From Escherichia coli (GTDB lineage Bacteria > Pseudomonadota > Gammaproteobacteria > Enterobacterales > Enterobacteriaceae), in the NCBI RefSeq assembly GCF_011045215.1, contig NZ_CP049201.1: 64,000 bases of DNA; one strand, written 5' to 3'. The position numbers and the translations under genes are program-made. This document shows, one piece after another, positions 1 to 55,414 of this stretch (within the stretch, counting starts at the first letter, position 1; every line of letters starts with the position of its first letter). The notes beneath the pieces are model-generated. The model ran no database searches. It was given only the letters and a program-made list of their open reading frames with translations, and was not told where the DNA came from.

Positions 1-209
1 TGAACAGGCTGATGGCATGGTTATCATCAAAACCAAGCTGATGGGTGAGATAGAGAATGAGTAAGGCACGCATGCCGTAAAAACTGAAGTACTCCCAGAT
101 TTGGATCGCCACGATATAGTATATCGCGCGCGGCTGTGAGGGTGTTTTCATGTGTTCTCCTTATGAGCAAAAAAGGGAAGTGGCAAGCCACTTCCCTTGT
201 ACGAGCTAA

Positions 210-4136: not shown

Positions 4137-5675
4137 TTATTCTGAAGCGAGAAATTTGTCGAGATAAGGTACAACATAAGGAACAGAAGTCTGGAATATA
4201 CCATTTTCAATCCAGTAAAGGGTGTTTGCCCCTGGGCGTAAATTAAAGGCGGTGAGATATGCATCAGCTGCTTCCCGATTCATCCCCTTCATTTCATAAA
4301 CCTTGCCAAGCAATACATAATTTAGCCAGGACATTTCAAGATCAATGCCAGTATTTATCGCCTGGTAAGACTCATCTGTTTTACCTTTTACCAGAGCACT
4401 GACCGCTTTTATTTGATATATAATGGACAGGTTATTCAATTCCGGTAGTGTAACAATGTTATCTATTTCTGTGTTCAGTGCTGCTAATTGTTTTTCATCT
4501 AAAGGATGTTGAGAATGGCGCACGATATCAACTAATGCTTTTTCTGCTCTCGCGTAGGTAAATTCTGGAGATGATTGAACAATCTCACCTAATAATTCAC
4601 TGGCACGGTTCAATGATTTATCATCGCCATGCAGTAAATAATCATGTGCCTGATAAAAATTAGTTAATAACGCACCACGATGAGGCAAAATTTGCTGGAG
4701 CGTCTCCTGCATTCGTTGTGGCCACGGTTGGTTTAACGCTTTTGATAAACTCTCCAGTAAATCATTTTGAATCGCCAGCTGATTACCGTTAGTGATGACA
4801 TAACGTTTATCCAGCATGGTTGAACCATCTGCATTGTCTACCAATTTTATCGACATAAAGCATTGTTGAGCACGGTATTGGCGCTGATTAACAAACGCAA
4901 TAGATAATGTTTTACCGGAACTGCTCGGTTCATCAATGTTGTAGTTGATTTTGTCATGCACCATAAAGGTGGAGAAGGTGTTAAGTGATGTCGCCACCAA
5001 ATCACCCACGCCTATCGCGTAAGAGAGCTGATACGGGGAACTCCAGCTGTTACAACTTTTATTTACCATATTAATGTCAATATCGCGTGGATTGAGCAAA
5101 ATACGCGATTTGCTCATCGGAAGACGTGTATCAAGACTTGAAAACGCTACCAGTGCTACACAGATACCTAAGGACAACAGGAAAAAAAACCATACCCAAA
5201 AGGTAGTGAATCGTTTGCTTTTAACTGGGGATTGTTCAGGTGGCGTTGCGGTGTTTTGAATGTTAAGGCTGTGGGAGGGAGAATCTGTGGCAGGAACCGC
5301 CTCTGGTATAGGGGGAGGCGAAGATAGCATTATTTCCTCTCCCTCTTCTTCGCTGTACCAGATAACCGGCACCATTAATTTATAGCCGCGCTTTGGTACA
5401 GTAGCGATATAGACAGGACTATCTTCATCATTATCTTTTAATGACTTACGTAGTTCTGAGATACTCTGCGTCACAACGTGATTGGTGACAATACTTCTCT
5501 TCCAGACATTATCGATAAGTTCATCCCTGCTAAGTACTTCGCCACTGTGTTGAGCAAAGAAAACCAGAAGATCGATTAATCTCGGCTCAAGGGTAAGTTG
5601 ACGCCCATTGCGGCTAATTTGGTTTATGGACGGAGTAACAAGCCATTCGCCAACGCGAACTACAGGTTGTTGCAT
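4137..5675 (-). CDS. cadC: ToxR-like membrane-integrated transcriptional activator CadC
   Basis: 512-aa ORF with an N-terminal winged-helix DNA-binding region (MQQPVVRVGEWLVTPSINQISRNGRQLTLEPRLIDLL), a central TM segment (FWVWFFFLLSLGICVALVAF) and a periplasmic sensor domain; matches E. coli CadC. Confidence 0.93.
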   Translation of the reverse strand: MQQPVVRVGEWLVTPSINQISRNGRQLTLEPRLIDLLVFFAQHSGEVLSRDELIDNVWKRSIVTNHVVTQSISELRKSLKDNDEDSPVYIATVPKRGYKLMVPVIWYSEEEGEEIMLSSPPPIPEAVPATDSPSHSLNIQNTATPPEQSPVKSKRFTTFWVWFFFLLSLGICVALVAFSSLDTRLPMSKSRILLNPRDIDINMVNKSCNSWSSPYQLSYAIGVGDLVATSLNTFSTFMVHDKINYNIDEPSSSGKTLSIAFVNQRQYRAQQCFMSIKLVDNADGSTMLDKRYVITNGNQLAIQNDLLESLSKALNQPWPQRMQETLQQILPHRGALLTNFYQAHDYLLHGDDKSLNRASELLGEIVQSSPEFTYARAEKALVDIVRHSQHPLDEKQLAALNTEIDNIVTLPELNNLSIIYQIKAVSALVKGKTDESYQAINTGIDLEMSWLNYVLLGKVYEMKGMNREAADAYLTAFNLRPGANTLYWIENGIFQTSVPYVVPYLDKFLASE

Positions 5676-6254
5676 AATAGAAACTCATTCGAAAAGGGAA
5701 TGATGCAATGATAATTGCCACAACCTATTTTTACCATCTATAGATGGGTTTATTTACATATTATTGGTGAATGCAAGACGTTATTTTTACCAGCCATAAA
5801 CTTCTTGATTACATGGTATTAAGAAAGGATTTTACTGAGAACCAGAAGTAATATTCCTTACCATCAAAATTCATCATCTTTGCCAAAGAAAAATGTTCAG
5901 AAAATAATCCATGGAAAATTGTCCGGAGCGCTTACTATTTTAATGGATTGTTAGTCTTTGCATGAGCAAGCGGACTGATACATTTCTCTTTGTTCTCATT
6001 CAGAAAATCTCATCAGTCGCCGTTCAGACCGGTGTTGTGCTTTATGGATGCGTTACGCTCCTGATGACGTCATTTGACGTTCAACAGCATCACGGGGTCG
6101 CACGACATTTCACGTCAGTTAGTGCTATAGCTCAGGAACAAATTTTCCCGAATTGGGATATGCCCGCAAATTGCTGGTGATGTGGGGAGAATCTGGTTGA
6201 GTTCGGTAGAATTGATTTGGCGGCAGAACGCTTAAATCGTGGCGTCCTGAAACG

Positions 6255-6282
6255 AAAAACGGACCTCCGTGGAGGTCCGTTT
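6255..6282 (-). terminator. GC-rich hairpin immediately 3' of the tRNA-Phe remnant (likely pheU terminator)
   Basis: Perfect inverted repeat aaaaacGGACCTCCgtGGAGGTCCgttt; T/A runs on both sides so it could act bidirectionally. Confidence 0.6.
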
Positions 6283-6291
6283 ATATGAATT

Positions 6292-6340
6292 TGGTGCCCG
6301 GACTCGGAATCGAACCAAGGACACGGGGATTTTCAATCCC
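6292..6340 (-). repeat. pheU: 3' 49-nt fragment of tRNA-Phe (pheU-type); candidate attachment-site direct repeat at the island junction
   Basis: The reverse complement of TGGTGCCCGGACTCGGAATCGAACCAAGGACACGGGGATTTTCAATCCC equals the 3' 49 nt of E. coli tRNA-Phe including CCA. Identity stops abruptly at 6341 (the tRNA would continue CTGCTCT; the window has ATGGCAA). Not a functional tRNA. Confidence 0.8.
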
Positions 6341-6439
6341 ATGGCAATGAGCTTCTGATAATTAAGAGTTCGTCAAGTAGTTAAAAGAGTTTTTTCATGT
6401 GCATCCAGTCTCAACTTATAAATGAGAAGGATGTGCGTA

Positions 6440-7315
6440 ATGAACATTCTGCCCGTTGTGTCCACCAAAGGTGGCGAAGGAAAATCAACCCAGTCTGCTA
6501 ACCTTGCCGGTTTTCTGGCGGATGCCGGCCTCCGTACCCTGCTGATAGACGGAGACCATGCCCAGCCCACGGCAAGCAATATCTTTCCGCTGACGTATGA
6601 AGCGCCGGCCGGTCTTTTTGAATTACTGATGCGCACGGCTGACCTCAGTCATCCCGACAACATCATTTCCCGCACGGCTATCGACGGCCTTGACCTGATA
6701 GTCTCCAATGACCCCCATGAACAACTGAAAACGGCCATGCTTCATGCGCCGGATGGTCGTCTCCGTCTGCGTAATGTGCTCCAGCATCCGCTTTTCCAGA
6801 GCTATGACGTCATTGTGGTGGATTCACAGGGCGCGCGTTCCGTCATGCTGGAAATGATTGTGCTGTCTGCCACGGAGTCTGTGGTGGGGATGGTGAATCC
6901 GGTTCTGCCGGATGTGCGTGAGTTCATTCGCGGCACAGTCAATGTCATGGAAAACCTGTTGCCCTACCGTGAACTGGGTATCCCCCTGCCGAAAGTCCGC
7001 ACCCTGGTTAACTGCATGGATTATACGGCGCTGGCCAGACAAACACTGGCGGAGCTGACCGACATTATTAACTCCGGTCGCTACAGCAAAGTGCTTCCGG
7101 AAGGCGCGGTCACCCTGCTTTCAACACAGATTTATGACCTGAATATTTACAAACAGGGACACGCAGCCGGCCAGCCGGTGCACCGCCTTGAAAAAGCGTC
7201 TGCCCGTCGCAGTGATTCTGCGCTGGTCACCATGCACAGCCTGGCCTGTGAGTTGTTGCCGGAGTGGAGTGAGTTTTTTGATGTACTGCTGGAAAACGGA
7301 GGTGAAAGCCTGTGA
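6440..7315 (+). CDS. ParA/Soj-family partition ATPase
   Basis: Deviant Walker A KGGEGKST near the N-terminus (MNILPVVSTKGGEGKSTQSANLA), then LLIDGDHAQ. AAGGA RBS 9 nt before the ATG at 6440. First gene inside the island, as in soj-terminal ICEs. Confidence 0.85.
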   Translation: MNILPVVSTKGGEGKSTQSANLAGFLADAGLRTLLIDGDHAQPTASNIFPLTYEAPAGLFELLMRTADLSHPDNIISRTAIDGLDLIVSNDPHEQLKTAMLHAPDGRLRLRNVLQHPLFQSYDVIVVDSQGARSVMLEMIVLSATESVVGMVNPVLPDVREFIRGTVNVMENLLPYRELGIPLPKVRTLVNCMDYTALARQTLAELTDIINSGRYSKVLPEGAVTLLSTQIYDLNIYKQGHAAGQPVHRLEKASARRSDSALVTMHSLACELLPEWSEFFDVLLENGGESL

Positions 7316-19265: not shown

Positions 19266-19964
19266 ATGAGTGAAGATAAACTGAACCAGAAAGATGTCCG
19301 GGCCGGCGCATTGCAGTCCTCGCTGTCCATTCTGTTACATACCCATTATGCCATTCGTCTTTGGGAAGGACGTTTACCCGGACGAAAGCCCGGGAATATG
19401 CCCTGGATTATGAGTATGCCGCAGGCAATAAAACGTGCCGGGGGGATTTACCGGGATTCCCTGGCGGATAATCCCTATGCCGATGAAGCGATGTGGAAGG
19501 TGGAAAATGCAATTAATGCTGCCAGTGAAAAAGTACATGCTCTGGTTGGCTGGCTGGAGCAGGTTCTGTGTGCCGTGCCGGCGAATATTACCATGACTGA
19601 TGTTGTATCCCGTTCTCCATTAAATATTGGGGTTTACAGTAGTTCTCCGCTGGGGTATCGCTGTGTCTGGCTGCTTGTGGGATATGATCAGATGGCTCTG
19701 AAAGCGTTTCAGGCATCCCACTTTGGCCTGATTTCCCGGCAGAAACGGGACGAGTTACTCTCACATGGCGGGTATCTTATCCGGAAAATTTACGGCATTT
19801 TAAGGGGTTATTATGCCATCCCTGTCACACGACAGGATCTTGAAGAAAAAACACCGGCGGGAGAACAGGCGATGGCACGCCTGGGGCTCCCTGATGCTGA
19901 GATTATGAATGGGCAGTTGCGATCATCATTTTCTCCTCCGCTGAAGAAAAAGAAGAATAAATAG
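19266..19964 (+). CDS. conserved ICE protein (232 aa), Lys-rich C-terminus
   Basis: ORF directly upstream of topB, as in PAPI-1-type elements. No catalytic motif recognised. Confidence 0.5.
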   Translation: MSEDKLNQKDVRAGALQSSLSILLHTHYAIRLWEGRLPGRKPGNMPWIMSMPQAIKRAGGIYRDSLADNPYADEAMWKVENAINAASEKVHALVGWLEQVLCAVPANITMTDVVSRSPLNIGVYSSSPLGYRCVWLLVGYDQMALKAFQASHFGLISRQKRDELLSHGGYLIRKIYGILRGYYAIPVTRQDLEEKTPAGEQAMARLGLPDAEIMNGQLRSSFSPPLKKKKNK

Positions 19965-19974
19965 TGGGGGATAA

Positions 19975-21984
19975 ATGCAACTTTACTTGTGTGAAAAACC
20001 GTCACAGGCGCGGGATATTGCCCGGGTGCTGGGGCTCAGCGGGCGGGGAGAGGGCTGTATTGAAGGTGATACTGTCACGGTCACCTGGGCTGTGGGGCAT
20101 CTGCTGGAGCTGGCCGCCCCGGAAGCGTACGGGGAACAGTTCGGGGTTCCCTGGCGTATGGAGTCGCTTCCCGTTCTGCCTGAAAAGTGGCAGATGACGG
20201 TTAAACCGCAGACGAAATCCCAGTTTACGGTGATCAGCCGCCTGCTGAAGCGTGCGTCTGAAGTGGTGATTGCCACGGATGCGGACAGGGAAGGAGAAGT
20301 CATCGCCCGGGAACTGCTGACGTACTGCCGGTACCGGGGGCCAGTCCGTCGGCTGTGGCTGTCTGCCCTGGATGAGGCCAGCGTCCGGGAGGCGCTGGCA
20401 AATATTCTGCCCGGTGAGCAGACGGCCCGTCTGTATGATGCCGGCCTGGCCCGTGGTCAGGCTGACTGGCTGATCGGGATGAACCTGACGCGTCTGTATA
20501 CCCTTAAGGCCCGGGCGTCGGGGATCCAGGATGTGTTGTCCGTCGGAAGGGTACAGACGCCGACACTTGCCATGGTGGTCAGACGGGATCAGGAGATTGC
20601 CGGTTTTGTGCCACGCCCCTGGTGGCAGGTGTTTGTCGGGCTGGAGAAAGACGGGATCCGGTTCCGGGTCGTCTGGGTGGCGGCAGAGCAGTACTGCGAT
20701 GAAGAGAAACGGTGCGTGAACGTTCAGGCGGCCCGGGCTGTTCTTCAGTTGTGTCAGCAGACACCGTCAGCGGTGGTGCATGAGGTGACCCGGAAGTGTG
20801 AAAAAACACCGGCTCCGCTCTGTTTTTCGCTGGGTACACTGCAGGAGGCCTGCTCCCGGAAATTTGGTATGGGAGCGCAGACTGTGCTGAATATCGCGCA
20901 GTCCCTGTATGAGACGCACAAAGCCACGACGTATCCCCGGACGGACTGTGGCTATCTGCCTGAATCCATGCAACAGGAAAGCCGGGAGGTACTGGCGGCG
21001 ATGGCGCGTTCAGACCCGGCCCTGACGCCGGTTCTGGCACAGCTCGATCCCGGTTTTGTTTCACGTATCTGGAATGACAAAAAGATTACGGCACACCATG
21101 CCATTATTCCGACCCGGCAGGTCTTTGATATCAGGGCACTGAGTGAAGATGAACTGAAGGTGTATCAGCTTATCCGCCAGCATTATCTGGCCCAGTTTCT
21201 GCCCCTGCAGGAGTCTGATATTACTGATGCAACACTGACACTCGGCGGGCAACGGTTCAGGGCCCGCGGGAAAGTGAATGTGGTGACGGGCTGGCGAAGC
21301 CTGTTTTCCGGGGAGGCTGCAGAAGTTGCTGAAGGTGAAGATGAACAGACGACGGAAATGGCGTTGCCGGCGCTTGAACGGGGAGAGCACTGCCGGATTA
21401 GCGGTTCAGAACTGAAGGACCGGATGACGTCACCTCCGGCACCTTTTACGGAAGGAACCCTGATTGCCGCCATGAAGAATGCTGCCAGTCAGGTCAGCGA
21501 CCCGAAGCTGAAAAAAGTGCTGCGGGAGAATGCCGGTCTGGGGACGGAGGCCACGCGGGCCGGTGTGCTGGAGGTGTTATTTGCCCGGCAGTATCTGGAG
21601 AAGAGCGGGAAGCATATCCGGTCAACGCAACGGGGCAGGGAACTGACGGCCGCCCTGCCGGAAGCCCTGACCAGTCCGGGCATGACGGCGCTGTGGGAGC
21701 AGGCTCTGGATGATATTGCACAGGGCAGAATGTCACTGGATACCTTTATGGGCAGACAGCAGCAGTGGGTGCGTCATCTGGTCTCATCCGGGCGGGAACA
21801 GCCCTTCAGTATGACGGTTCCGGTGACGCCGCCGTGCCCGCTTTGTCAGGGGCCGACCCGGCAGCGAAAGGGAAAGCACGGACTGTTCCGGAGCTGTCAG
21901 CGGTATCCTGAGTGTAAGGGCGTGGTGAACACGCAGAAAAAGGCCGGGCGACGAAAAAACGCGGGAAAAACTAAAACGGAGTAA
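19975..21984 (+). CDS. topB: DNA topoisomerase III (TopB-like)
   Basis: TOPRIM N-terminus (MQLYLCEKPSQARDIARVLGL...VVIATDADREGEVIAREL), type IA core, C-terminal zinc-ribbon cysteines (CPLCQG...CQRYPEC). Confidence 0.9.
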   Translation: MQLYLCEKPSQARDIARVLGLSGRGEGCIEGDTVTVTWAVGHLLELAAPEAYGEQFGVPWRMESLPVLPEKWQMTVKPQTKSQFTVISRLLKRASEVVIATDADREGEVIARELLTYCRYRGPVRRLWLSALDEASVREALANILPGEQTARLYDAGLARGQADWLIGMNLTRLYTLKARASGIQDVLSVGRVQTPTLAMVVRRDQEIAGFVPRPWWQVFVGLEKDGIRFRVVWVAAEQYCDEEKRCVNVQAARAVLQLCQQTPSAVVHEVTRKCEKTPAPLCFSLGTLQEACSRKFGMGAQTVLNIAQSLYETHKATTYPRTDCGYLPESMQQESREVLAAMARSDPALTPVLAQLDPGFVSRIWNDKKITAHHAIIPTRQVFDIRALSEDELKVYQLIRQHYLAQFLPLQESDITDATLTLGGQRFRARGKVNVVTGWRSLFSGEAAEVAEGEDEQTTEMALPALERGEHCRISGSELKDRMTSPPAPFTEGTLIAAMKNAASQVSDPKLKKVLRENAGLGTEATRAGVLEVLFARQYLEKSGKHIRSTQRGRELTAALPEALTSPGMTALWEQALDDIAQGRMSLDTFMGRQQQWVRHLVSSGREQPFSMTVPVTPPCPLCQGPTRQRKGKHGLFRSCQRYPECKGVVNTQKKAGRRKNAGKTKTE

Positions 21985-22248: not shown

Positions 22249-22312
22249 TTCCGGGTTGACTTTCCATGGATGTGTTTTAAAAATAACCGGGCTTATTTGC
22301 TGCATCTGCAGC

Positions 22313-22496
22313 CAGCCAATGTTTCAGCAGTCTGAGAGAAACGCCTTCGGGTGACTGCCAGCCAACGTTTCACCGGCCTGAGAGAAACACCTTCGGGTGG
22401 CCGGAATATCCTCGTAGCCTGAAAGAGGATGCCTGTGGGCGGTACATCCGTTTAACCTCTGGAAACGGATATCACTGTTCAGTGATTGAGGTCTTT
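22313..22496 (+). ncRNA. structured repeat element R1 (two pseudoknot-like units plus terminal hairpin domain); candidate sRNA or single-strand structural element
   Basis: Units CCAGCCAAyGTTTCa-stem-TGAGAGAAACrCCTTCGGGTG-stem, then ..GGTACATCCGTTTAACCTCTGGAAACGGATATCACTGTTCAGTGATTGAGGTC followed by TTTTT. Homologous to R2 and R3 with compensatory stem changes. Confidence 0.45.
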
Positions 22497-48837: not shown

Positions 48838-49165
48838 ACGTAACGCCCGTCAGCGTCTGAAAGCGGTGCTGCTCACAGGCGGTATCCTGCTGGCATTTAT
48901 GGTGGTGGCGCTGTTCATTGCGGATGTGGCCATTCGTCATCCTGAAGGGACAGCTACGTTCAGTTCGTGGATGCGGGCTCACCGTTCTGGCTGGCTGCTC
49001 TGGCGTCTGTGCATTTATATCCTGCTGGGCTGGGGTATCTGGCGTATCGTGCATGCGCCGGGGTTCCGGGCGGAATACCGCCAGCCGTTGATGCGTATCT
49101 GTTGCGCCAGTGTGGCGTTTATTCTGGTCTGTGAATATGCGCTGCTGAAGGCGCAGGGAGGCTGA
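48824..49165 (+). CDS. small ICE membrane protein
   Basis: Overlaps the upstream stop; three hydrophobic segments. Confidence 0.45.
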   Translation: MKMNKRNARQRLKAVLLTGGILLAFMVVALFIADVAIRHPEGTATFSSWMRAHRSGWLLWRLCIYILLGWGIWRIVHAPGFRAEYRQPLMRICCASVAFILVCEYALLKAQGG

Positions 49166-50754
49166 TGATGACAACAAACAGCTATCTTGAATATTTTCTG
49201 ACCCTGCTGGGCTGGCTGATTAATAACGGCCTGTGGGATGTGCTGCTGGGGACCGGGTTGTTTGCACTGCCGCTGGTATTTAAGGTGATTGGGATTTGGC
49301 TGCGGGTCAGGGAAGAAGGGGAGGATGAGGGGAATAAGGGACTTCTCTCGCTGCCCCGTATTGAACATGCACTGTACATGGGTTTTTTTGTGATTATCAG
49401 TTGCTGCGTGCCGCTGGTTAATGTCAGTCTGGGGACTATTGAGTATGACGGCAGTCGTGCAAAGCAGTGCGGAACATGGACGCCGAAGGCACCGGATAAG
49501 ACCGGGTATGCAGGTGTGATTTCCAGTATGGACGGTAAAACGGCGCAGATCCCGCTGTGGTGGCTGATGGTGCACAAACTTTCAAAAGGGGTGACTCAGG
49601 CCGCAGTGGCATCCATTCCCTGTACACCGGATATGCGACAGATGCGTTTTGAGGTTCAGCATACCCGGATCAACAATAAGGCACTGATTGAAGAGCTGCA
49701 GGATTTTACCAATGACTGCTACTCACTGGCGCTGTACAGCTGGAAGCACCAGGATCAGGGAATGACAACGGATAAAAATACGCTGCGGGATATTGAGTGG
49801 ATTGGCAGCAGGACATTTCAGTCGCGTTATTACAATGAACTGCAGTCGAAGATGCCGAGAAGTGCGTTTCCGTGGAATGCATCCCGTGACAGTGGACGCC
49901 CAAACACCGGTCGGGGTGGTTACCCGACCTGTAATGAGTGGTGGAGTGAGGCGGATGTCGGGCTGAAAAGTCGGGTGATGAAGCAGGCTGACCCCGGTAT
50001 GTGGCTGCGTCTGTCAGCAACAATGAAAATGATCGGGAATACAGGCAAGGAGTATGAAGAAGCGGTGATACGCCGTCTGGTCAGTCCGGTGAATATGACA
50101 GTGTCACATGGTGGCAGAGCCTATGCCGGTTATGGCGGGAATGCGGATTTGTCGCTGGATAATGCGGTGACCCGCGTGTTCTCAACGGGGGGCGTGGCGC
50201 TGGGGAGTCTGGCGGCGTTTCCGGCCCTGGATGCGATGCGACAGGCATTACCCATGGTACAGGGGATCCTGTTGATGGCTATTTACGTGATGTTACCGCT
50301 GATTCTGGCGTTTGCGGCGTACGAGATAAAGACGGTGATTACACTGACGTTTGTGATTTTTGCGACTAATTTCCTGACGTTCTGGTGGGAGCTGGCACGA
50401 TGGCTGGATTCATGGATGTTTACAGCGCTGTACAGTTCGGGAACACACAGCCGTTTCAATATGGCAGGGTTTCAGAATACCTCAGATGACCTGATTATGA
50501 ATCTGGTGATGGGCAGTATGTTCCTGATTCTGCCAGCGGTCTGGATGGGGGCATTATCTTGGGCCGGGGTGTATATTGGAGGAGCGATGACTCAAAGTAT
50601 GGGAGATGGCACCAGACAAGCTCAGGCATCAGGAGGCAGTGCTGTTAATATGTTGCAGGATGCTGGGTTGCGGGGGATGTCTGGGGGCACGTCAGCAGGC
50701 TCAACAGGCCAAACAGTAGGCTCGGTAGGTCAAAAATTGAATAAGCAAAAATAA
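49165..50754 (+). CDS. TraG-like (F-type TraG N-terminal domain) polytopic membrane protein
   Basis: 529 aa with multiple TM helices flanking a large periplasmic domain, Gly/Ser-rich C-terminus. Last conserved transfer gene before the cargo. Confidence 0.6.
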   Translation: MMTTNSYLEYFLTLLGWLINNGLWDVLLGTGLFALPLVFKVIGIWLRVREEGEDEGNKGLLSLPRIEHALYMGFFVIISCCVPLVNVSLGTIEYDGSRAKQCGTWTPKAPDKTGYAGVISSMDGKTAQIPLWWLMVHKLSKGVTQAAVASIPCTPDMRQMRFEVQHTRINNKALIEELQDFTNDCYSLALYSWKHQDQGMTTDKNTLRDIEWIGSRTFQSRYYNELQSKMPRSAFPWNASRDSGRPNTGRGGYPTCNEWWSEADVGLKSRVMKQADPGMWLRLSATMKMIGNTGKEYEEAVIRRLVSPVNMTVSHGGRAYAGYGGNADLSLDNAVTRVFSTGGVALGSLAAFPALDAMRQALPMVQGILLMAIYVMLPLILAFAAYEIKTVITLTFVIFATNFLTFWWELARWLDSWMFTALYSSGTHSRFNMAGFQNTSDDLIMNLVMGSMFLILPAVWMGALSWAGVYIGGAMTQSMGDGTRQAQASGGSAVNMLQDAGLRGMSGGTSAGSTGQTVGSVGQKLNKQK

Positions 50755-50778
50755 TTCCAGCGCGGTAAATATTAAATC

Positions 50779-50820
50779 AGGGGATTGAAGGATGCTCTGA
50801 AATCCCCGATTTTATGTTTT
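50779..50820. terminator. bidirectional rho-independent terminator at the transfer-cluster/cargo boundary
   Basis: GGGGATTgaaggatgctctgaAATCCCC followed by a T-rich tract; sits between convergent genes. Confidence 0.6.
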
Positions 50821-50823
50821 TAA

Positions 50824-51231
50824 TTAATTTCCATCGCGCTCCCATTGTTCTCTCCATATAGGACGCTCCCATTCTTCTCTCCATATAGGACGCTTCCATT
50901 GTTCTCCTTCGTACTCAAAATTCAAGTCATGCCTCTTTTCAAGACTATCACATTGTGTATTAAATCCGGCACCAACACATCGAAGAATGTATGCAACAGC
51001 CCATGTAAACGCCAGACACCCGAGAACTGCCGTGATACTGAAGAGTGCACAAACCACAATTCCGGTTAATCCAATAGCCAGCGGAAGCCGTCCAGTCCAG
51101 GCTGGCAGATGCCTTTTTCTGGCCGCATGAATCCAGAAGTTGTCCCACCGACGAAGCGTTCTTACGAGTCGTTTCCACTGAATGGCAAACCGTTGTCCTC
51201 TGAGATAAGCGGCTTTGTTAGTCGTTTTCAT
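50824..51231 (-). CDS. membrane protein with C-terminal tandem WKRPIWRE-type repeats
   Basis: Two TM helices; the C-terminus contains EGEQWKRPIWREEWERPIWREQWERDGN, mirrored at DNA level by repeats at 50830-50900. Confidence 0.4.
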   Translation of the reverse strand: MKTTNKAAYLRGQRFAIQWKRLVRTLRRWDNFWIHAARKRHLPAWTGRLPLAIGLTGIVVCALFSITAVLGCLAFTWAVAYILRCVGAGFNTQCDSLEKRHDLNFEYEGEQWKRPIWREEWERPIWREQWERDGN

Positions 51232-51357
51232 AAGAAAAACTCCTAATTTTCAGTCCTATGTAATGAATTTAATGTTCAAACTATAAGCCATTTTTGTATA
51301 AATATAGGTGAAAAACCATACAGAATCTACCGATAAATGTCTCAAAAGGAGGTGTAA

Positions 51358-51921
51358 ATGTTGAGTAAAAAATTGTTATTGGTTTGTGTTTCATGCCTGG
51401 CGTTAACTGCCTGTTCTGTTGATGAAATTGCTTCGGTTAACAAGCAAATTAGTGATGGTGCTTTTGCTTTAACGGGGGCATTGCGTGGAAACTCATCGTC
51501 TGCGGATTCAAATGGAATGCCGGTTTTAAGTCAGGCGCAAAAACCGGCGACAAAATCCAGAACGCAGGAATATTCAGTACCCGTTGATGTTGATACAGCT
51601 GCTGCTCGCCTTAAACGTTATTACGAGTTTATATCTTTCGATGAAATTGAAGCTATCCGCAAAAAAAACACCAGTGGGGAATGGGCGGCATCAGCAATAC
51701 TTGAACAGAACCCTGTATGGGAGGTTATGCCCGGTAGTTATTATAAAATGGGTCAAAACTGGGACGATTATGATCATCTGACTATTGAAGTGGAAAAGAA
51801 TGGGGCGGGAAGTAAATTATATATTACGTTTAAATCGCCATCGGATAAAAGACTGAATAGTGAAAGTCTCAGGAAACTGATGTTGAATATTAAAGATGTT
51901 GCTGAAGGGAAAATTCGTTAA
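51358..51921 (+). CDS. AT-rich cargo lipoprotein (187 aa)
   Basis: Perfect AAGGAGG RBS; lipobox LALTAC; promoter-like TTCAAA-16-TATAAA upstream. Confidence 0.6.
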   Translation: MLSKKLLLVCVSCLALTACSVDEIASVNKQISDGAFALTGALRGNSSSADSNGMPVLSQAQKPATKSRTQEYSVPVDVDTAAARLKRYYEFISFDEIEAIRKKNTSGEWAASAILEQNPVWEVMPGSYYKMGQNWDDYDHLTIEVEKNGAGSKLYITFKSPSDKRLNSESLRKLMLNIKDVAEGKIR

Positions 51922-51941
51922 TTGATGATGAGATCGTGTTT

Positions 51942-52070
51942 ATGTTAAAGAAAATTGTGCTCGGATTGTTAATTGTTGCGCTGGTCGCTTTTTCTTTTGA
52001 TTTTGGTCGGCGGTGGGAGCTGTCTAAAACAGCAGAATATTGTTCTTCAATTGGCAAAAAAAATATCTGA
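51942..52070 (+). CDS. possible small membrane peptide (42 aa)
   Basis: Short ORF (MLKKIVLGLLIVALVAFSFDFGRRWELSKTAEYCSSIGKKNI) between the lipoprotein and DUF2726-like genes; weak RBS. Confidence 0.25.
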   Translation: MLKKIVLGLLIVALVAFSFDFGRRWELSKTAEYCSSIGKKNI

Positions 52071-52127
52071 TGCTGGTCCCGCATATTGCGTCGAAAAGTA
52101 ATCTGTAAATGGAGATGGTTTGATTTT

Positions 52128-52772
52128 ATGGACTATATTGTTATTTTCGTAGTAGGTTTTTTTATCGGTCTTGTATATGGTAGCGGTAAAAAATATGTAA
52201 AAGATAAACATGTGAGTTATTACCGTGAAAATCGTAATAACGATTTCCAGAAAGCAAATAGTAATATTGAAAAATATGAAAGAGATAATAAGGTATACAG
52301 AAATCCCCGCTGGGAGGGAAAAGATGAAATATTCTGGGGGATGATGAATTCGCAAATTTGCCTTGAAAGAAAACGTGGGCCATATTTATGCACTGATCCT
52401 GAAAATAAGTATTTGTTGAAATTAACTGAGTGGTTTGGTGACATTTGTTACATAAATTGTCAGGTGTCTTTAGGGCAATTGGTTGATTTTAAGGCTAAAA
52501 ATAATAAGCAATTTACTGAGGAGGAAAGAAGGCGGTTTTTTAGTATCTATGCTTCGATGGCAATGGATTATGTACTTGTGTACAAAAAAACAAAAAGAAT
52601 TGTTTGTGTCATAGAGCTTAATGATGGTTCACATAATAAAGAGGAACGAATCGAACGAGACAGAAAAGTTGCTGAGTTATTGAAACGTTGCGATATTTCA
52701 TTTCTCCCGGTGTCTATTGATAAAATGGATATTAAACCCGACATATGGAAAGACAGGGGAAATAGAGAATAA
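52128..52772 (+). CDS. membrane-anchored DUF2726-like nuclease-fold protein
   Basis: GGAG RBS; N-terminal TM helix; C-terminal motif MDYVLVYKKTKRIVCVIELNDGSHNKEERIERDRKVAELLKRCDISFLPV, matching the D..(I/V)E.DG.H...D..R pattern of DUF2726/DUF559-type endonuclease folds (recalled). Confidence 0.55.
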   Translation: MDYIVIFVVGFFIGLVYGSGKKYVKDKHVSYYRENRNNDFQKANSNIEKYERDNKVYRNPRWEGKDEIFWGMMNSQICLERKRGPYLCTDPENKYLLKLTEWFGDICYINCQVSLGQLVDFKAKNNKQFTEEERRRFFSIYASMAMDYVLVYKKTKRIVCVIELNDGSHNKEERIERDRKVAELLKRCDISFLPVSIDKMDIKPDIWKDRGNRE

Positions 52773-52914
52773 ATAATTAATTTGTATCTACAGAATATTA
52801 ATGCTCAGGCTGGTTAACCCCGGCCTTTTTATTTTATATACAGACGTTCCTGTGAGACTATTGACATATAAAAGCCCGTCTTGCTAATCTTTTCCCGCTT
52901 TAATGTCGCTGTAT

Positions 52915-53101
52915 GCGACCATCCAAATCCCCAGTAGTCTGAGAGGGGAGCCTTCGGGCGGCTACCAGCCAATGCTTTAACGATCTGAGAGAAGCGCCTT
53001 CGGGTGATCGTAATGTTCTCGTAGCCTGGAAGAGAACGCCTTACGTGGCGGTACATCCGTTTAACCTCTGGGAACGGATATCACGGAACCGTGATTGAGG
53101 T
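52915..53101 (+). ncRNA. structured repeat element R2 (homolog of R1 and R3)
   Basis: Same unit architecture as R1 with compensatory stem substitutions (TCCCC/GGGGA in place of GTTTC/GAAAC; ACGATC/GATCGT in place of GCAGTC/GACTGC) and the conserved 3' domain GGTACATCCGTTTAACCTCTGGGAACGGATATCACGGAACCGTGATTGAGGTC. Confidence 0.45.
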
Positions 53102-53763
53102 CGTGCTGGCCTGAGGCCAGTTGTTCTATGCAGGCATCCTGCAGATGCCATGATTCTTTACTTACAGGCTTATCACGCCTGCATATCAATACGTTAAGTC
53201 TTTCAGAGACATGTCTGAACGAACTGACGTCTTTAATCTGTTCGGGCATTCGCCCCGGGCTTCTTACGACTGTACGCACTGCATAAGGCCATCTGAAATC
53301 TGGCCGCTTGCGTGCGTATGTGGAGTTTGAAGCTGCGCGGCGTCACTTTTGTCGGCGTGTAACGATGACAAAGTGACGCATGCGCGTCTGCTTTACGAAC
53401 CCGCACAAACCGTCGCGTCACGGGATGTTTTTTAACATTTGAAGAAGTGACCAGACGTGAGAGTGTTTTTTCAACCTTCTCTGCAAACGTACAGACGATA
53501 CCGTGAATAACGTTCATCGACCGTTCTTCTTGCAGAATTTTATTGTTTTTTAAGGAGTTTTATGTAGTGAGATGCCGAACCGGCGATACCACTTATTAGG
53601 GGTGGTATCGGGGGCGACCTGGAAACAGGTACAGCGAATGCTGCAGTCGGTGTGCAACACCGGTTTGTTACCCCTCAATACCTAAACAGTCTGCGCTACC
53701 CTGGCGCTCAGGCACTCATTACCCGAAGGATCGCAACGCTTAACCGTGTCGCCAGGGAGAATG

Positions 53764-53812
53764 CAGATGAATTTTGCTGTTGTGTTCACGGCACAACAGC
53801 AAAATTCATCTG
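53764..53812. promoter_or_regulatory. perfect 21-7-21 palindrome upstream of the recombinase gene (candidate operator or recombination site)
   Basis: CAGATGAATTTTGCTGTTGTG-ttcacgg-CACAACAGCAAAATTCATCTG, followed directly by the 14-bp palindrome GCTGTACGTACAGC at 53812-53825, 25 bp upstream of the GAGGAGG RBS. Confidence 0.5.
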
Positions 53813-53850
53813 CTGTACGTACAGCTGTTTAAGACAAAGAGGAGGTATCT

Positions 53851-54753
53851 GTGTCCAGACGTGAAAAATTACTGAAACAGGATTTGGTTGCTCATATCCG
53901 GAAAGACCGGGGGAGTTTCAAGAAGCTGAGTGACTATTCCCGGATCATGCACCGGTTTGCGGAAAGACTGGCTAAACTGAATATACAGATCAGTTCTGCT
54001 GCGCAGGTAAAAGTGCGGCATATTGAATTATATATGAACAGCAGGAGTGATGTTTCAAAGCGAACCAGAGAAAATGAAATGTCTGCAATACGGGTTATGT
54101 TACGTCAGGCCGGTAAACATAAAATGGCAGATCCTGAACATCCCCGTCTCAGCAATAAGGCGTTAGGTATTTCAGGAGGAAGCCGTAAAGGGACAAAGAA
54201 ATTAATTACGGATGAGCGTTTCCGGGAAATTCTTCAGCGCGTGGAAGCAAAAGATAAAGGGGTGGCAGCTGTTGTTAAACTGTCACGTTATCTCGGTCTG
54301 AGAAATGAAGAAGCTGTCCAGTCGGCCAAATCGTTACGGACGTGGAAAAAAGCGTTACAACGGGGAGATGAAAAAATAAGGGTGATTTTTGGTACGAAAG
54401 GGGGACGGGAAAGAATGACGACGGTTGTTGACCGGGATAAAGTTCTTGATGCTGTTAATTACGCACTCAAATATGCCAGTGAGCATAATGAACGTCTGAT
54501 AGACAGAGATAATCTTAAGTCGGCAATGGATTATTATCTTAATACGTTACGACGTTATGGAGAACTGAAAGGCGGAGATGAAACCGCACACAGTTTTCGG
54601 TACAGTTACGCCGCAAGTGCCATGAAATATCATATTATGAATGGTTACAGTTATAAGGAGGCACTTGCACTGACATCAATTGATCTTGGTCATGGTGATG
54701 GCAGAGGTCGATATATTGAACAGGTTTATTGTCAGTTATTAGGCTATGAGTAA
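53851..54753 (+). CDS. tyrosine site-specific recombinase (phage-integrase/Xer-like catalytic domain)
   Basis: GTG start with GAGGAGG RBS. Catalytic-domain boxes: LSRYLGLRNEEAVQ (box I Arg), HSFRYSYAASAM (H-x-x-R), GHGDGRGRYIEQVY (catalytic Tyr). Confidence 0.65.
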   Translation: MSRREKLLKQDLVAHIRKDRGSFKKLSDYSRIMHRFAERLAKLNIQISSAAQVKVRHIELYMNSRSDVSKRTRENEMSAIRVMLRQAGKHKMADPEHPRLSNKALGISGGSRKGTKKLITDERFREILQRVEAKDKGVAAVVKLSRYLGLRNEEAVQSAKSLRTWKKALQRGDEKIRVIFGTKGGRERMTTVVDRDKVLDAVNYALKYASEHNERLIDRDNLKSAMDYYLNTLRRYGELKGGDETAHSFRYSYAASAMKYHIMNGYSYKEALALTSIDLGHGDGRGRYIEQVYCQLLGYE

Positions 54754-55109: not shown

Positions 55110-55157
55110 CTTGACATCCATCTTTTGTGCCTTAAAAATATACAGGCTAACTTTGTT

Positions 55158-55414
55158 ACCTTCGGGTGACCATCCAATGTTTCGGTAGTCTGAGAGAAAC
55201 GCCTTCGGGTGACTACAGTTATCTTCGGATAACCATCCAAATCCCCGGTAGTCTGAGAGGGGAGCCTTCGGGCGACTACCAGCCAATGCTTTGACGATCT
55301 GAGAAAAGCGCCTTCGGGTGATCGTAATGTCTCCGTAGCCTGAAAGGGGACGCCTTAGAGGGTGGTACATCCGTTTAACCTCTGGAAACGGATATCACGG
55401 AACAGTGATCGAGG
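55158..55414 (+). ncRNA. structured repeat element R3 (three units plus terminal domain)
   Basis: Largest copy: a partial unit, then GTAGTC/GACTAC, GGTAGTC/GACTACC and ACGATC/GATCGT units, and the conserved 3' domain ending ..GATCGAGGTC followed by TTTTAT. Confidence 0.45.

Follow-up and report, generated by a model that had tools for sequence, protein, structure and literature searches.

A recent study described SNIPE, in which an N-out single-pass transmembrane (TM) segment sequesters a GIY-YIG nuclease that cleaves phage DNA during injection, the form deprived of this segment being toxic (Saxton et al., bioRxiv 10.1101/2025.11.03.685801). A survey of PD-(D/E)XK proteins grouped DUF2726, a family that shows another nuclease fold, with Vsr and DUF559 (PMC3424549). 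With regard to conjugative elements, integrative conjugative elements (ICEs) of the PAPI-1 type show exclusion, and the lipoproteins TraT of F and TrbK of RP4, as well as the pair EexA/EexB of R27, are cited as exclusion factors in the same work (PMC5297154). The stretch analyzed here, hereafter the window, comprises 64,000 nucleotides (nt) of Escherichia coli (NCBI RefSeq assembly GCF_011045215.1, contig NZ_CP049201.1) and, judging by its gene content, carries an MPF_G ICE of the PAPI-1/SPI-7/ICEclc type. Within this element, an AT-rich block encodes a lipoprotein, a small hydrophobic peptide and a DUF2726 protein. The best combined explanation found for this block, to which a probability of about 0.45 is given, is that its genes would be independent modules and that the DUF2726 protein would be a membrane-anchored protein of nuclease fold with a role in defence or exclusion.

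The protein encoded by the last gene of the block matches the Pfam DUF2726 hidden Markov model (PF10881) with E=5e-17 and 62.3 bits, over model positions 4-113 of 126 and residues 87-200, in agreement with the published placement of this family beside Vsr and DUF559 (PMC3424549). The restriction-endonuclease-like alpha/beta core is present in the protein, and the best structural matches of its domain are true DNases, namely Vsr, I-Bth0305I and TnsA. The motif reads D147...I-E163-L-N-D166-G-S-H169...R174..R177-D178, and it was verified that 50 diverse relatives share E92, D147, E163, H169, R177 and D178 without exception, D166 being nearly invariant. A first-pass annotation, made from the letters of the window, had described an N-terminal TM helix joined to a C-terminal endonuclease motif and had suggested a DUF2726/Vsr-type fold, and both proposals were borne out. 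The window protein shares with the DUF2726 family (PF10881) the D...IEL(N/D)DxSH...RxxRD motif and the N-terminal TM anchor, to which its own subfamily adds a conserved pre-domain segment, RWE..DELFW.M (residues ~60-75), and a fixed location in MPF_G ICEs. The gene is thus a further member of an already named, functionally uncharacterised family, the E. coli orthologue being called "DUF2726 domain-containing protein" by NCBI.

Concerning the membrane anchor, an N-terminal hydrophobic segment was found in 105 of 123 full-length DUF2726 relatives, and a TM anchor is the normal architecture of the family. In the window protein, the hydrophobic helix is followed by a basic juxtamembrane stretch, so that the positive-inside rule predicts an N-out/C-in orientation, with the nuclease-fold domain on the cytoplasmic side. 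A cleavable signal peptide was considered and ruled out, since a basic n-region is lacking and the positive charges come after the helix. Altogether, the assignment of this protein as a membrane-anchored nuclease fold is considered highly probable. It had also been proposed that the nuclease acts with secreted partners, an idea left without support because the predicted topology puts the nuclease domain on the cytoplasmic side, and the lipoprotein and the peptide are exported.

Like SNIPE, the DUF2726 protein is encoded by a single gene and has an N-terminal single-pass TM segment, and by prediction it also has the short periplasmic N-terminus and the cytoplasmic nuclease domain; the logic of membrane sequestration would be shared. 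Unlike SNIPE, it carries neither GIY-YIG nor DUF4041, the DNA- and tape-measure-binding domain of that system, since Pfam finds DUF2726 only, and its fold is of the PD-(D/E)XK/Vsr-like kind. In addition, it is less than half the size of SNIPE, has no PADLOC match and is known here from sequence. As for Vsr and the catalytic domain of I-Bth0305I, no sequence-level similarity to the DUF2726 protein was detectable, and these are soluble enzymes whose partners (Dcm for Vsr, the intron for I-Bth0305I) are absent here.

Relatives of this protein were also found outside ICEs. Close TM-DUF2726 relatives, with 44-48% identity, lie in type VI secretion system (T6SS) loci (L029, 9797-10483; L031, 9938-10588; L005, 8001-8636). 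In the T6SS core clusters of Citrobacter and Pantoea the gene order is tssM-tssA-DUF2726-tssF-tssG-tssJ-vgrG, the gene calls being confirmed by NCBIfam in Citrobacter and the same order of open reading frames (ORFs) being recognized by similarity in Pantoea, and in Erwinia the DUF2726 gene is found directly upstream of vgrG-DUF2169-PAAR. A lone DUF2726 gene outside ICEs occurs in Xenorhabdus, and another one lies between phoH and tRNA-Ser in 1,050 of the 5,426 complete E. coli genomes surveyed (~19%). This last paralogue, a TM-DUF2726 protein of 228 aa with about 37% identity, is located at 9093-9779 of L053 in E. coli 042, where it likewise has no PADLOC match, and it would lend itself well to tests of the family's function. 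TM-anchored DUF2726 genes were also observed in the accessory region of filamentous phages of Vibrio (Inoviridae/Tubulavirales, 10-13 kb). No explanation was found for the recurrence of TM-DUF2726 genes beside type IV secretion system (T4SS), T6SS and inovirus genes. Decayed copies were found in two ICEs, since the DUF2726 gene of the Proteus mirabilis ATCC 29906 element (L032, 9699-10258) is a split pseudogene without the IELDDxSH core and that of the Salmonella element (L008, 7800-8438) is frameshifted after the TM helix.

Regarding the relationship among the three genes, the block is very probably a transcription unit made of independently inherited pieces. The whole block was present in nine of the 5,426 complete E. 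coli genomes, and the other 24 of the 33 matching E. coli records matched only its first ~855 nt, which correspond to the lipoprotein and, where examined, the peptide. Homology to ICEs lacking the DUF2726 gene breaks immediately after the small-ORF stop and resumes at ~52861, with a different segment of ~0.5 kb in the gap. In other ICEs, DUF2726 relatives 35-51% identical occupy the same slot, upstream of STAXI-EFASI-Integrase_1, where, without the lipoprotein, the gene comes after VapBC in Dickeya, after a MazEF-like pair in Pectobacterium, after an Abi_2 gene matching PADLOC PD-T4-5 (E=1e-33) in a further case, and directly after the minus-strand ORF in L019. This slot, bounded by the T4SS module on one side and the STAXI-EFASI-integrase region on the other, is a variable one, which sister ICEs fill with toxin-antitoxin and Abi genes. 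At least six ICE lineages carry the DUF2726 gene but not the lipoprotein, as do the non-ICE contexts; apart from the window lineage, a lipoprotein followed by DUF2726 was found only in L003/L004 and in L008, the latter with the frameshifted copy. No gene was common upstream or downstream of DUF2726 across contexts, no type II toxin-antitoxin arrangement was recognized, and the three genes did not co-occur across genomes as a conserved system. The first-pass annotation had proposed a search for the same arrangement in other genomes and had named a lack of co-occurrence as a refutation; by that criterion the three-gene module fails and is largely refuted. It is, in fact, very improbable that the lipoprotein, the peptide and the DUF2726 protein constitute one trans-envelope defence or exclusion system, in which a sensor at the outer membrane, a peptide at the inner membrane and a membrane-bound nuclease would cooperate. 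Although in the window and in nine E. coli genomes the genes are neighbours on one strand, closed by a single terminator and without any terminator between them, and although the lipoprotein also precedes DUF2726 in the two diverged ICEs L003 and L008, the peptide is missing from both of these and frameshifted in the window. Moreover, the lipoprotein stands without DUF2726 in those 24 E. coli records and at another ICE position, DUF2726 lacks the lipoprotein in most contexts, and the cassette boundary falls exactly between the peptide and DUF2726.

Other explanations concern the DUF2726 protein itself. One possibility is that it serves the membrane DNA transactions of the ICE, either by trimming or processing the transferred strand on entry or exit or by acting with STAXI/EFASI and the Integrase_1-type recombinase. 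In all ICE loci where the gene is found, 130-190 nt separate it from STAXI-EFASI-Integrase_1 downstream, it has diverged in step with the ICE backbone (98/47/49/46/42/35% identity versus 95/73/70/71/71/62% for TraG_N), and inoviruses, which also move single-stranded DNA through the inner membrane, carry TM-DUF2726 genes. However, relatives at 36-51% identity are found in non-ICE loci without STAXI, and most close E. coli ICEs lack the gene and those of Proteus and Salmonella retain only a pseudogene, so that it is not needed for ICE function, which makes this role unlikely. A non-catalytic or non-DNase relative, such as a membrane-tethered nucleic-acid binder or an RNA-acting RAP-like protein, is quite unlikely, considering that E92, D147, E163 and H169 do not vary and D166 hardly varies across the 50 relatives, a pattern expected of a metal-dependent active site, and that the best structural matches are true DNases. 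The protein could also stabilise the ICE as an addiction or toxin-like factor, or serve to kill competitors, as sister ICEs harbor VapBC, a MazEF-like pair or an Abi gene in the same slot and nuclease folds can be toxic, by analogy with SNIPE lacking its TM segment. Nevertheless, this role is distinctly improbable, since no conserved antitoxin or immunity partner accompanies the gene in any context, it stands alone in 19% of E. coli genomes and in Xenorhabdus, and the upstream peptide is not co-inherited with it.

In the preferred explanation, that of independent modules with a membrane-anchored nuclease fold acting in defence or exclusion, the lipoprotein would go to the outer membrane, as predicted; in the E. 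coli lineage it is followed by a bitopic peptide of 52 aa, both belonging to the gene set of enterobacterial PAPI-1/SPI-7-type ICEs. DUF2726 is a stand-alone gene, whose product would be anchored N-out/C-in by its helix, with the nuclease domain on the cytoplasmic face of the inner membrane. This tether would keep the nuclease off the nucleoid, protecting the chromosome, and at the point where foreign DNA enters, where it would cut incoming DNA, such as phage genomes and conjugative or inoviral single-stranded DNA, in a SNIPE-like manner. Taken alone, the assignment of the DUF2726 protein to defence or exclusion, made by analogy, has somewhat less than an even chance.

Several observations weigh against this explanation. 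The topology of the DUF2726 protein is a prediction only, and hhalign gave no alignment between the DUF2726 family profile and E. coli Vsr that would relate the conserved residues to the catalytic residues of Vsr. PDB sequence searches with the single protein and with a 50-sequence profile returned nothing meaningful, NCBIfam scans of the three proteins gave trivial matches or none, and none of the three was matched by a PADLOC-DB v2.0.0 family at E<=0.1; given these empty searches, the defence reading draws on context and analogy. The PADLOC result agrees with the claim that the block is not a described system. PHROGs scans of the three proteins were likewise trivial or without matches, except for phrog_14167, of unknown function, in the case of DUF2726, and no functional study of any DUF2726 protein was found in the literature searched. 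Furthermore, placement within T6SS core operons is atypical for a defence gene, the decay of DUF2726 in the Proteus and Salmonella ICEs and its absence from most E. coli relatives indicate that it is dispensable, and its unvarying placement before STAXI, kept in ICE lineages with as little as 35% identity, may instead point to a role specific to the ICE.

At present, the block amounts to an ordinary mosaic of accessory genes and genes associated with the element, with function read from context alone. Should the DUF2726 protein prove to be an active nuclease tethered to the membrane, a function would be given to a large DUF family found in roughly one in five complete E. coli genomes, the recently proposed recognition of foreign DNA by its place of entry would have a second example, and PAPI-1/SPI-7-type ICEs would be shown to have a defence/addiction hotspot in the slot before STAXI. 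A broader proposal, also made by analogy and rather doubtful, is that TM-anchored DUF2726 proteins are widespread membrane-sequestered endonucleases intercepting DNA that crosses the inner membrane, whether phage genomes or the single-stranded DNA of conjugation and filamentous phages. If true, this would represent a second, evolutionarily independent solution to the strategy of SNIPE, in which self and non-self are told apart by location, and would explain the recurrence of DUF2726 on ICEs, inoviruses and chromosomal islets.

The lipoprotein had been correctly recognized: its signal, MLSKKLLLVCVSCLALTAC, carries the lipobox LTAC and fits the pattern [LVI][ASTVI][GAS]C (MLSKKLLLVCVSCLALTA-C19), and the lipobox Cys is invariant in 48 homologues. 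The residue at position +2 is Ser, Ala or Thr in these proteins, never Asp, and Ser in the window protein, so that outer-membrane sorting is expected. AlphaFold placed a confident helix-grip domain (SRPBCC/BamC-N/Flpp3-like) at residues ~65-187, preceded by a flexible linker, and the fold search retrieved generic helix-grip/SRPBCC proteins, BamC-N and Flpp3 only, with no functional lead. The lipoprotein had no Pfam match below E=0.6, no NCBIfam match at E<0.09 and no PADLOC or PHROG family, and it was not matched by the Pfam and NCBIfam models of TraT or of other named T4SS lipoprotein families. A second copy elsewhere in the window was ruled out by tblastn.

Lipoproteins 39-51% identical are encoded in the distant ICEs L011, L013 and L015, where the gene abuts or overlaps PFL_4669/AcaB and precedes topB. 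In the window, the PFL_4669 and topB genes (19266-21984) abut with nothing between them. It was thus observed that this backbone-associated gene moved within the element, lying at the PFL_4669/topB junction in the distant ICEs and after TraG_N in the window lineage. The block had been called ICE cargo and does lie inside an MPF_G-type ICE, but the lipoprotein, going by these comparisons, is better described as part of the ICE family's own gene set. Like TraT, TrbK and EexA/EexB, it is element-encoded, adjoins a TraG-type gene and is retained across the ICE family. Unlike them, it shows no sequence or family match, its fold is helix-grip/BamC-N-like, and its gene in other ICEs is found beside PFL_4669/topB instead of traG. 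The lipoprotein and the peptide are most economically regarded as envelope proteins of the element, most likely with an envelope function, such as surface or mating-related exclusion. A surface-exclusion role for them is conceivable because PAPI-1 shows exclusion with determinants still unidentified (PMC5297154).

The small ORF had been annotated as a possible hydrophobic peptide of 42 aa. The ORF is present; however, in four relatives (L001, L009, L010 and L002) the corresponding gene encodes a peptide of 52 aa, MLKKIVLGLLIVALVAFSFDFGRRWELSKTAEYCSSIGKKISDAGPAYCVEK, which comprises a single TM helix and a tail with two Cys and is under purifying selection (dN/dS 0.08-0.23). In the window, an extra A in a homopolymeric tract (A8 instead of A7) truncates the peptide to 42 aa, and the intact frame would end at 52100/52101, so that the window ORF appears to be a frameshift-damaged copy of the conserved peptide. 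The peptide is absent in L003 and L008.

The features of the block and of its surroundings are given in Table 1.

Table 1. Location of the features discussed (window coordinates unless another locus or residues are indicated).
Feature	Coordinates	Strand	Remarks
TraG_N-domain gene	49165-50754		Final gene of the T4SS block
Bidirectional hairpin	50774-50812		dG -18.3 and -14.1 kcal/mol; z -4.1 and -3.4
Convergent membrane-protein ORF, 135 aa	50824-51231	-	Conserved; neighbour outside the block, between hairpin and block
Divergent region, 126 bp			Separates the lipoprotein gene from the minus-strand ORF; contains the candidate promoter
Candidate sigma-70 promoter, TTCAAA-16 nt-TATAAA	51275-51302	+	By-eye match only
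Shine-Dalgarno sequence AAGGAGGT	51346-51353	+	5 nt before the ATG at 51358
Lipoprotein ORF, 187 aa	51358-51921	+	
Small ORF, 44/42 aa	51936/51943-52070	+	
A8 homopolymer, frameshift site	52056-52063	+	A7 or interrupted run in relatives
DUF2726 cassette boundaries	52101-52861		From alignment to ICEs without the gene
DUF2726 ORF, 214 aa	52128-52772	+	
DUF2726 protein, TM helix	aa 2-18		Followed by basic juxtamembrane KKYVKDKH
DUF2726 protein, linker	aa ~20-60		Low confidence
DUF2726 protein, Vsr/DUF559-type PD-(D/E)XK fold	aa ~87-200		
Intrinsic terminator	52807-52836	+	7-bp GC-rich stem, then UUUUUAUUUU; ends the transcription unit
STAXI motif	52904-53057	+	Directly 3' of the terminator
EFASI motif	53564-53721	+	
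Integrase_1-type gene	53851-54753		
Lipoprotein gene of distant ICEs	about 6001-6580 in each of L011, L013, L015		
Inovirus DUF2726 genes	L020 1554-2222; L021 8132-8773		L020, Vibrio phage Vaf1

The AT-rich composition attributed to the block was verified, with a GC content of 0.32-0.43 versus 0.53-0.60 in the T4SS genes upstream, and the bidirectional terminator and the perfect ribosome-binding site that had been pointed out before it were likewise found. On the other hand, the block does not come immediately after the last transfer gene, as had been claimed, since the minus-strand ORF intervenes between the hairpin and the block. The sigma70-like promoter is readable by eye but was not reported by the consensus scan, which gave no site upstream of 51358 and three sites in the region versus 7.9 in shuffles.

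With respect to the element as a whole, NCBIfam matches in the window include TraD (TIGR03754), a TraC-type ATPase (TIGR03744), TIGR03755/03756 proteins, the PFL_4669 protein and TopB, and the closest E. coli relatives are annotated likewise, with MPF_G ICE genes. The ParA-like gene of the ICE (6422-7315) adjoins the chromosomal cadC (4137-5675, minus strand); no tRNA gene was detected anywhere in the window by ARAGORN or Rfam, and the ICE attachment site at the ParA/cadC end was not identified. The Rfam scores for the STAXI-EFASI stretch were 109.7 bits and 55 bits. Three STAXI motifs (22298-22448, 52904-53057 and 55154-55279) and one EFASI motif are found in the window, all on the plus strand, and the order (variable slot)-STAXI-EFASI-Integrase_1 gene-STAXI is common to every related ICE locus examined. 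In relatives, these motifs flank a region rich in anti-restriction-type genes (ArdC-N, Antirestrict, RadC). A literature search on STAXI returned psychology papers only. In addition, a perfect 22-nt inverted repeat with a 7-nt spacer was observed at 53763-53813, 38 nt 5' of the start of the Integrase_1-type gene, and also in the relatives L001, L009 and L010; its possible roles include those of operator, terminator and recombination site.

A separate observation concerns the end of the TraG_N gene and the convergent minus-strand ORF. The 84 N-terminal residues encoded by this ORF, which was left unannotated by PGAP in L001, are nearly invariant and its C-terminal tail is hypervariable, the tail of the window copy being built from 27-nt tandem repeats (50837-50906). 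The segment 50688-50977 has no detectable nucleotide homology to L001, L002 and L009, with both flanks 92-98% identical, and the break is wider in the case of L010 (50647-50981). This segment spans the last ~22 TraG_N codons (50688-50754), the hairpin and the tail of the minus-strand ORF, and the TraG_N and ORF tails co-vary, forming three types across five loci. In SXT/R391 elements, entry exclusion depends on a specificity pair of the TraG/Eex type, and the co-variation of the two tails is the signature expected of such a pair. The TraG_N tail and the tail of the minus-strand ORF are thus a candidate TraG/Eex-like entry-exclusion specificity pair for MPF_G ICEs, which is more intriguing than the block originally flagged and deserves a separate study.

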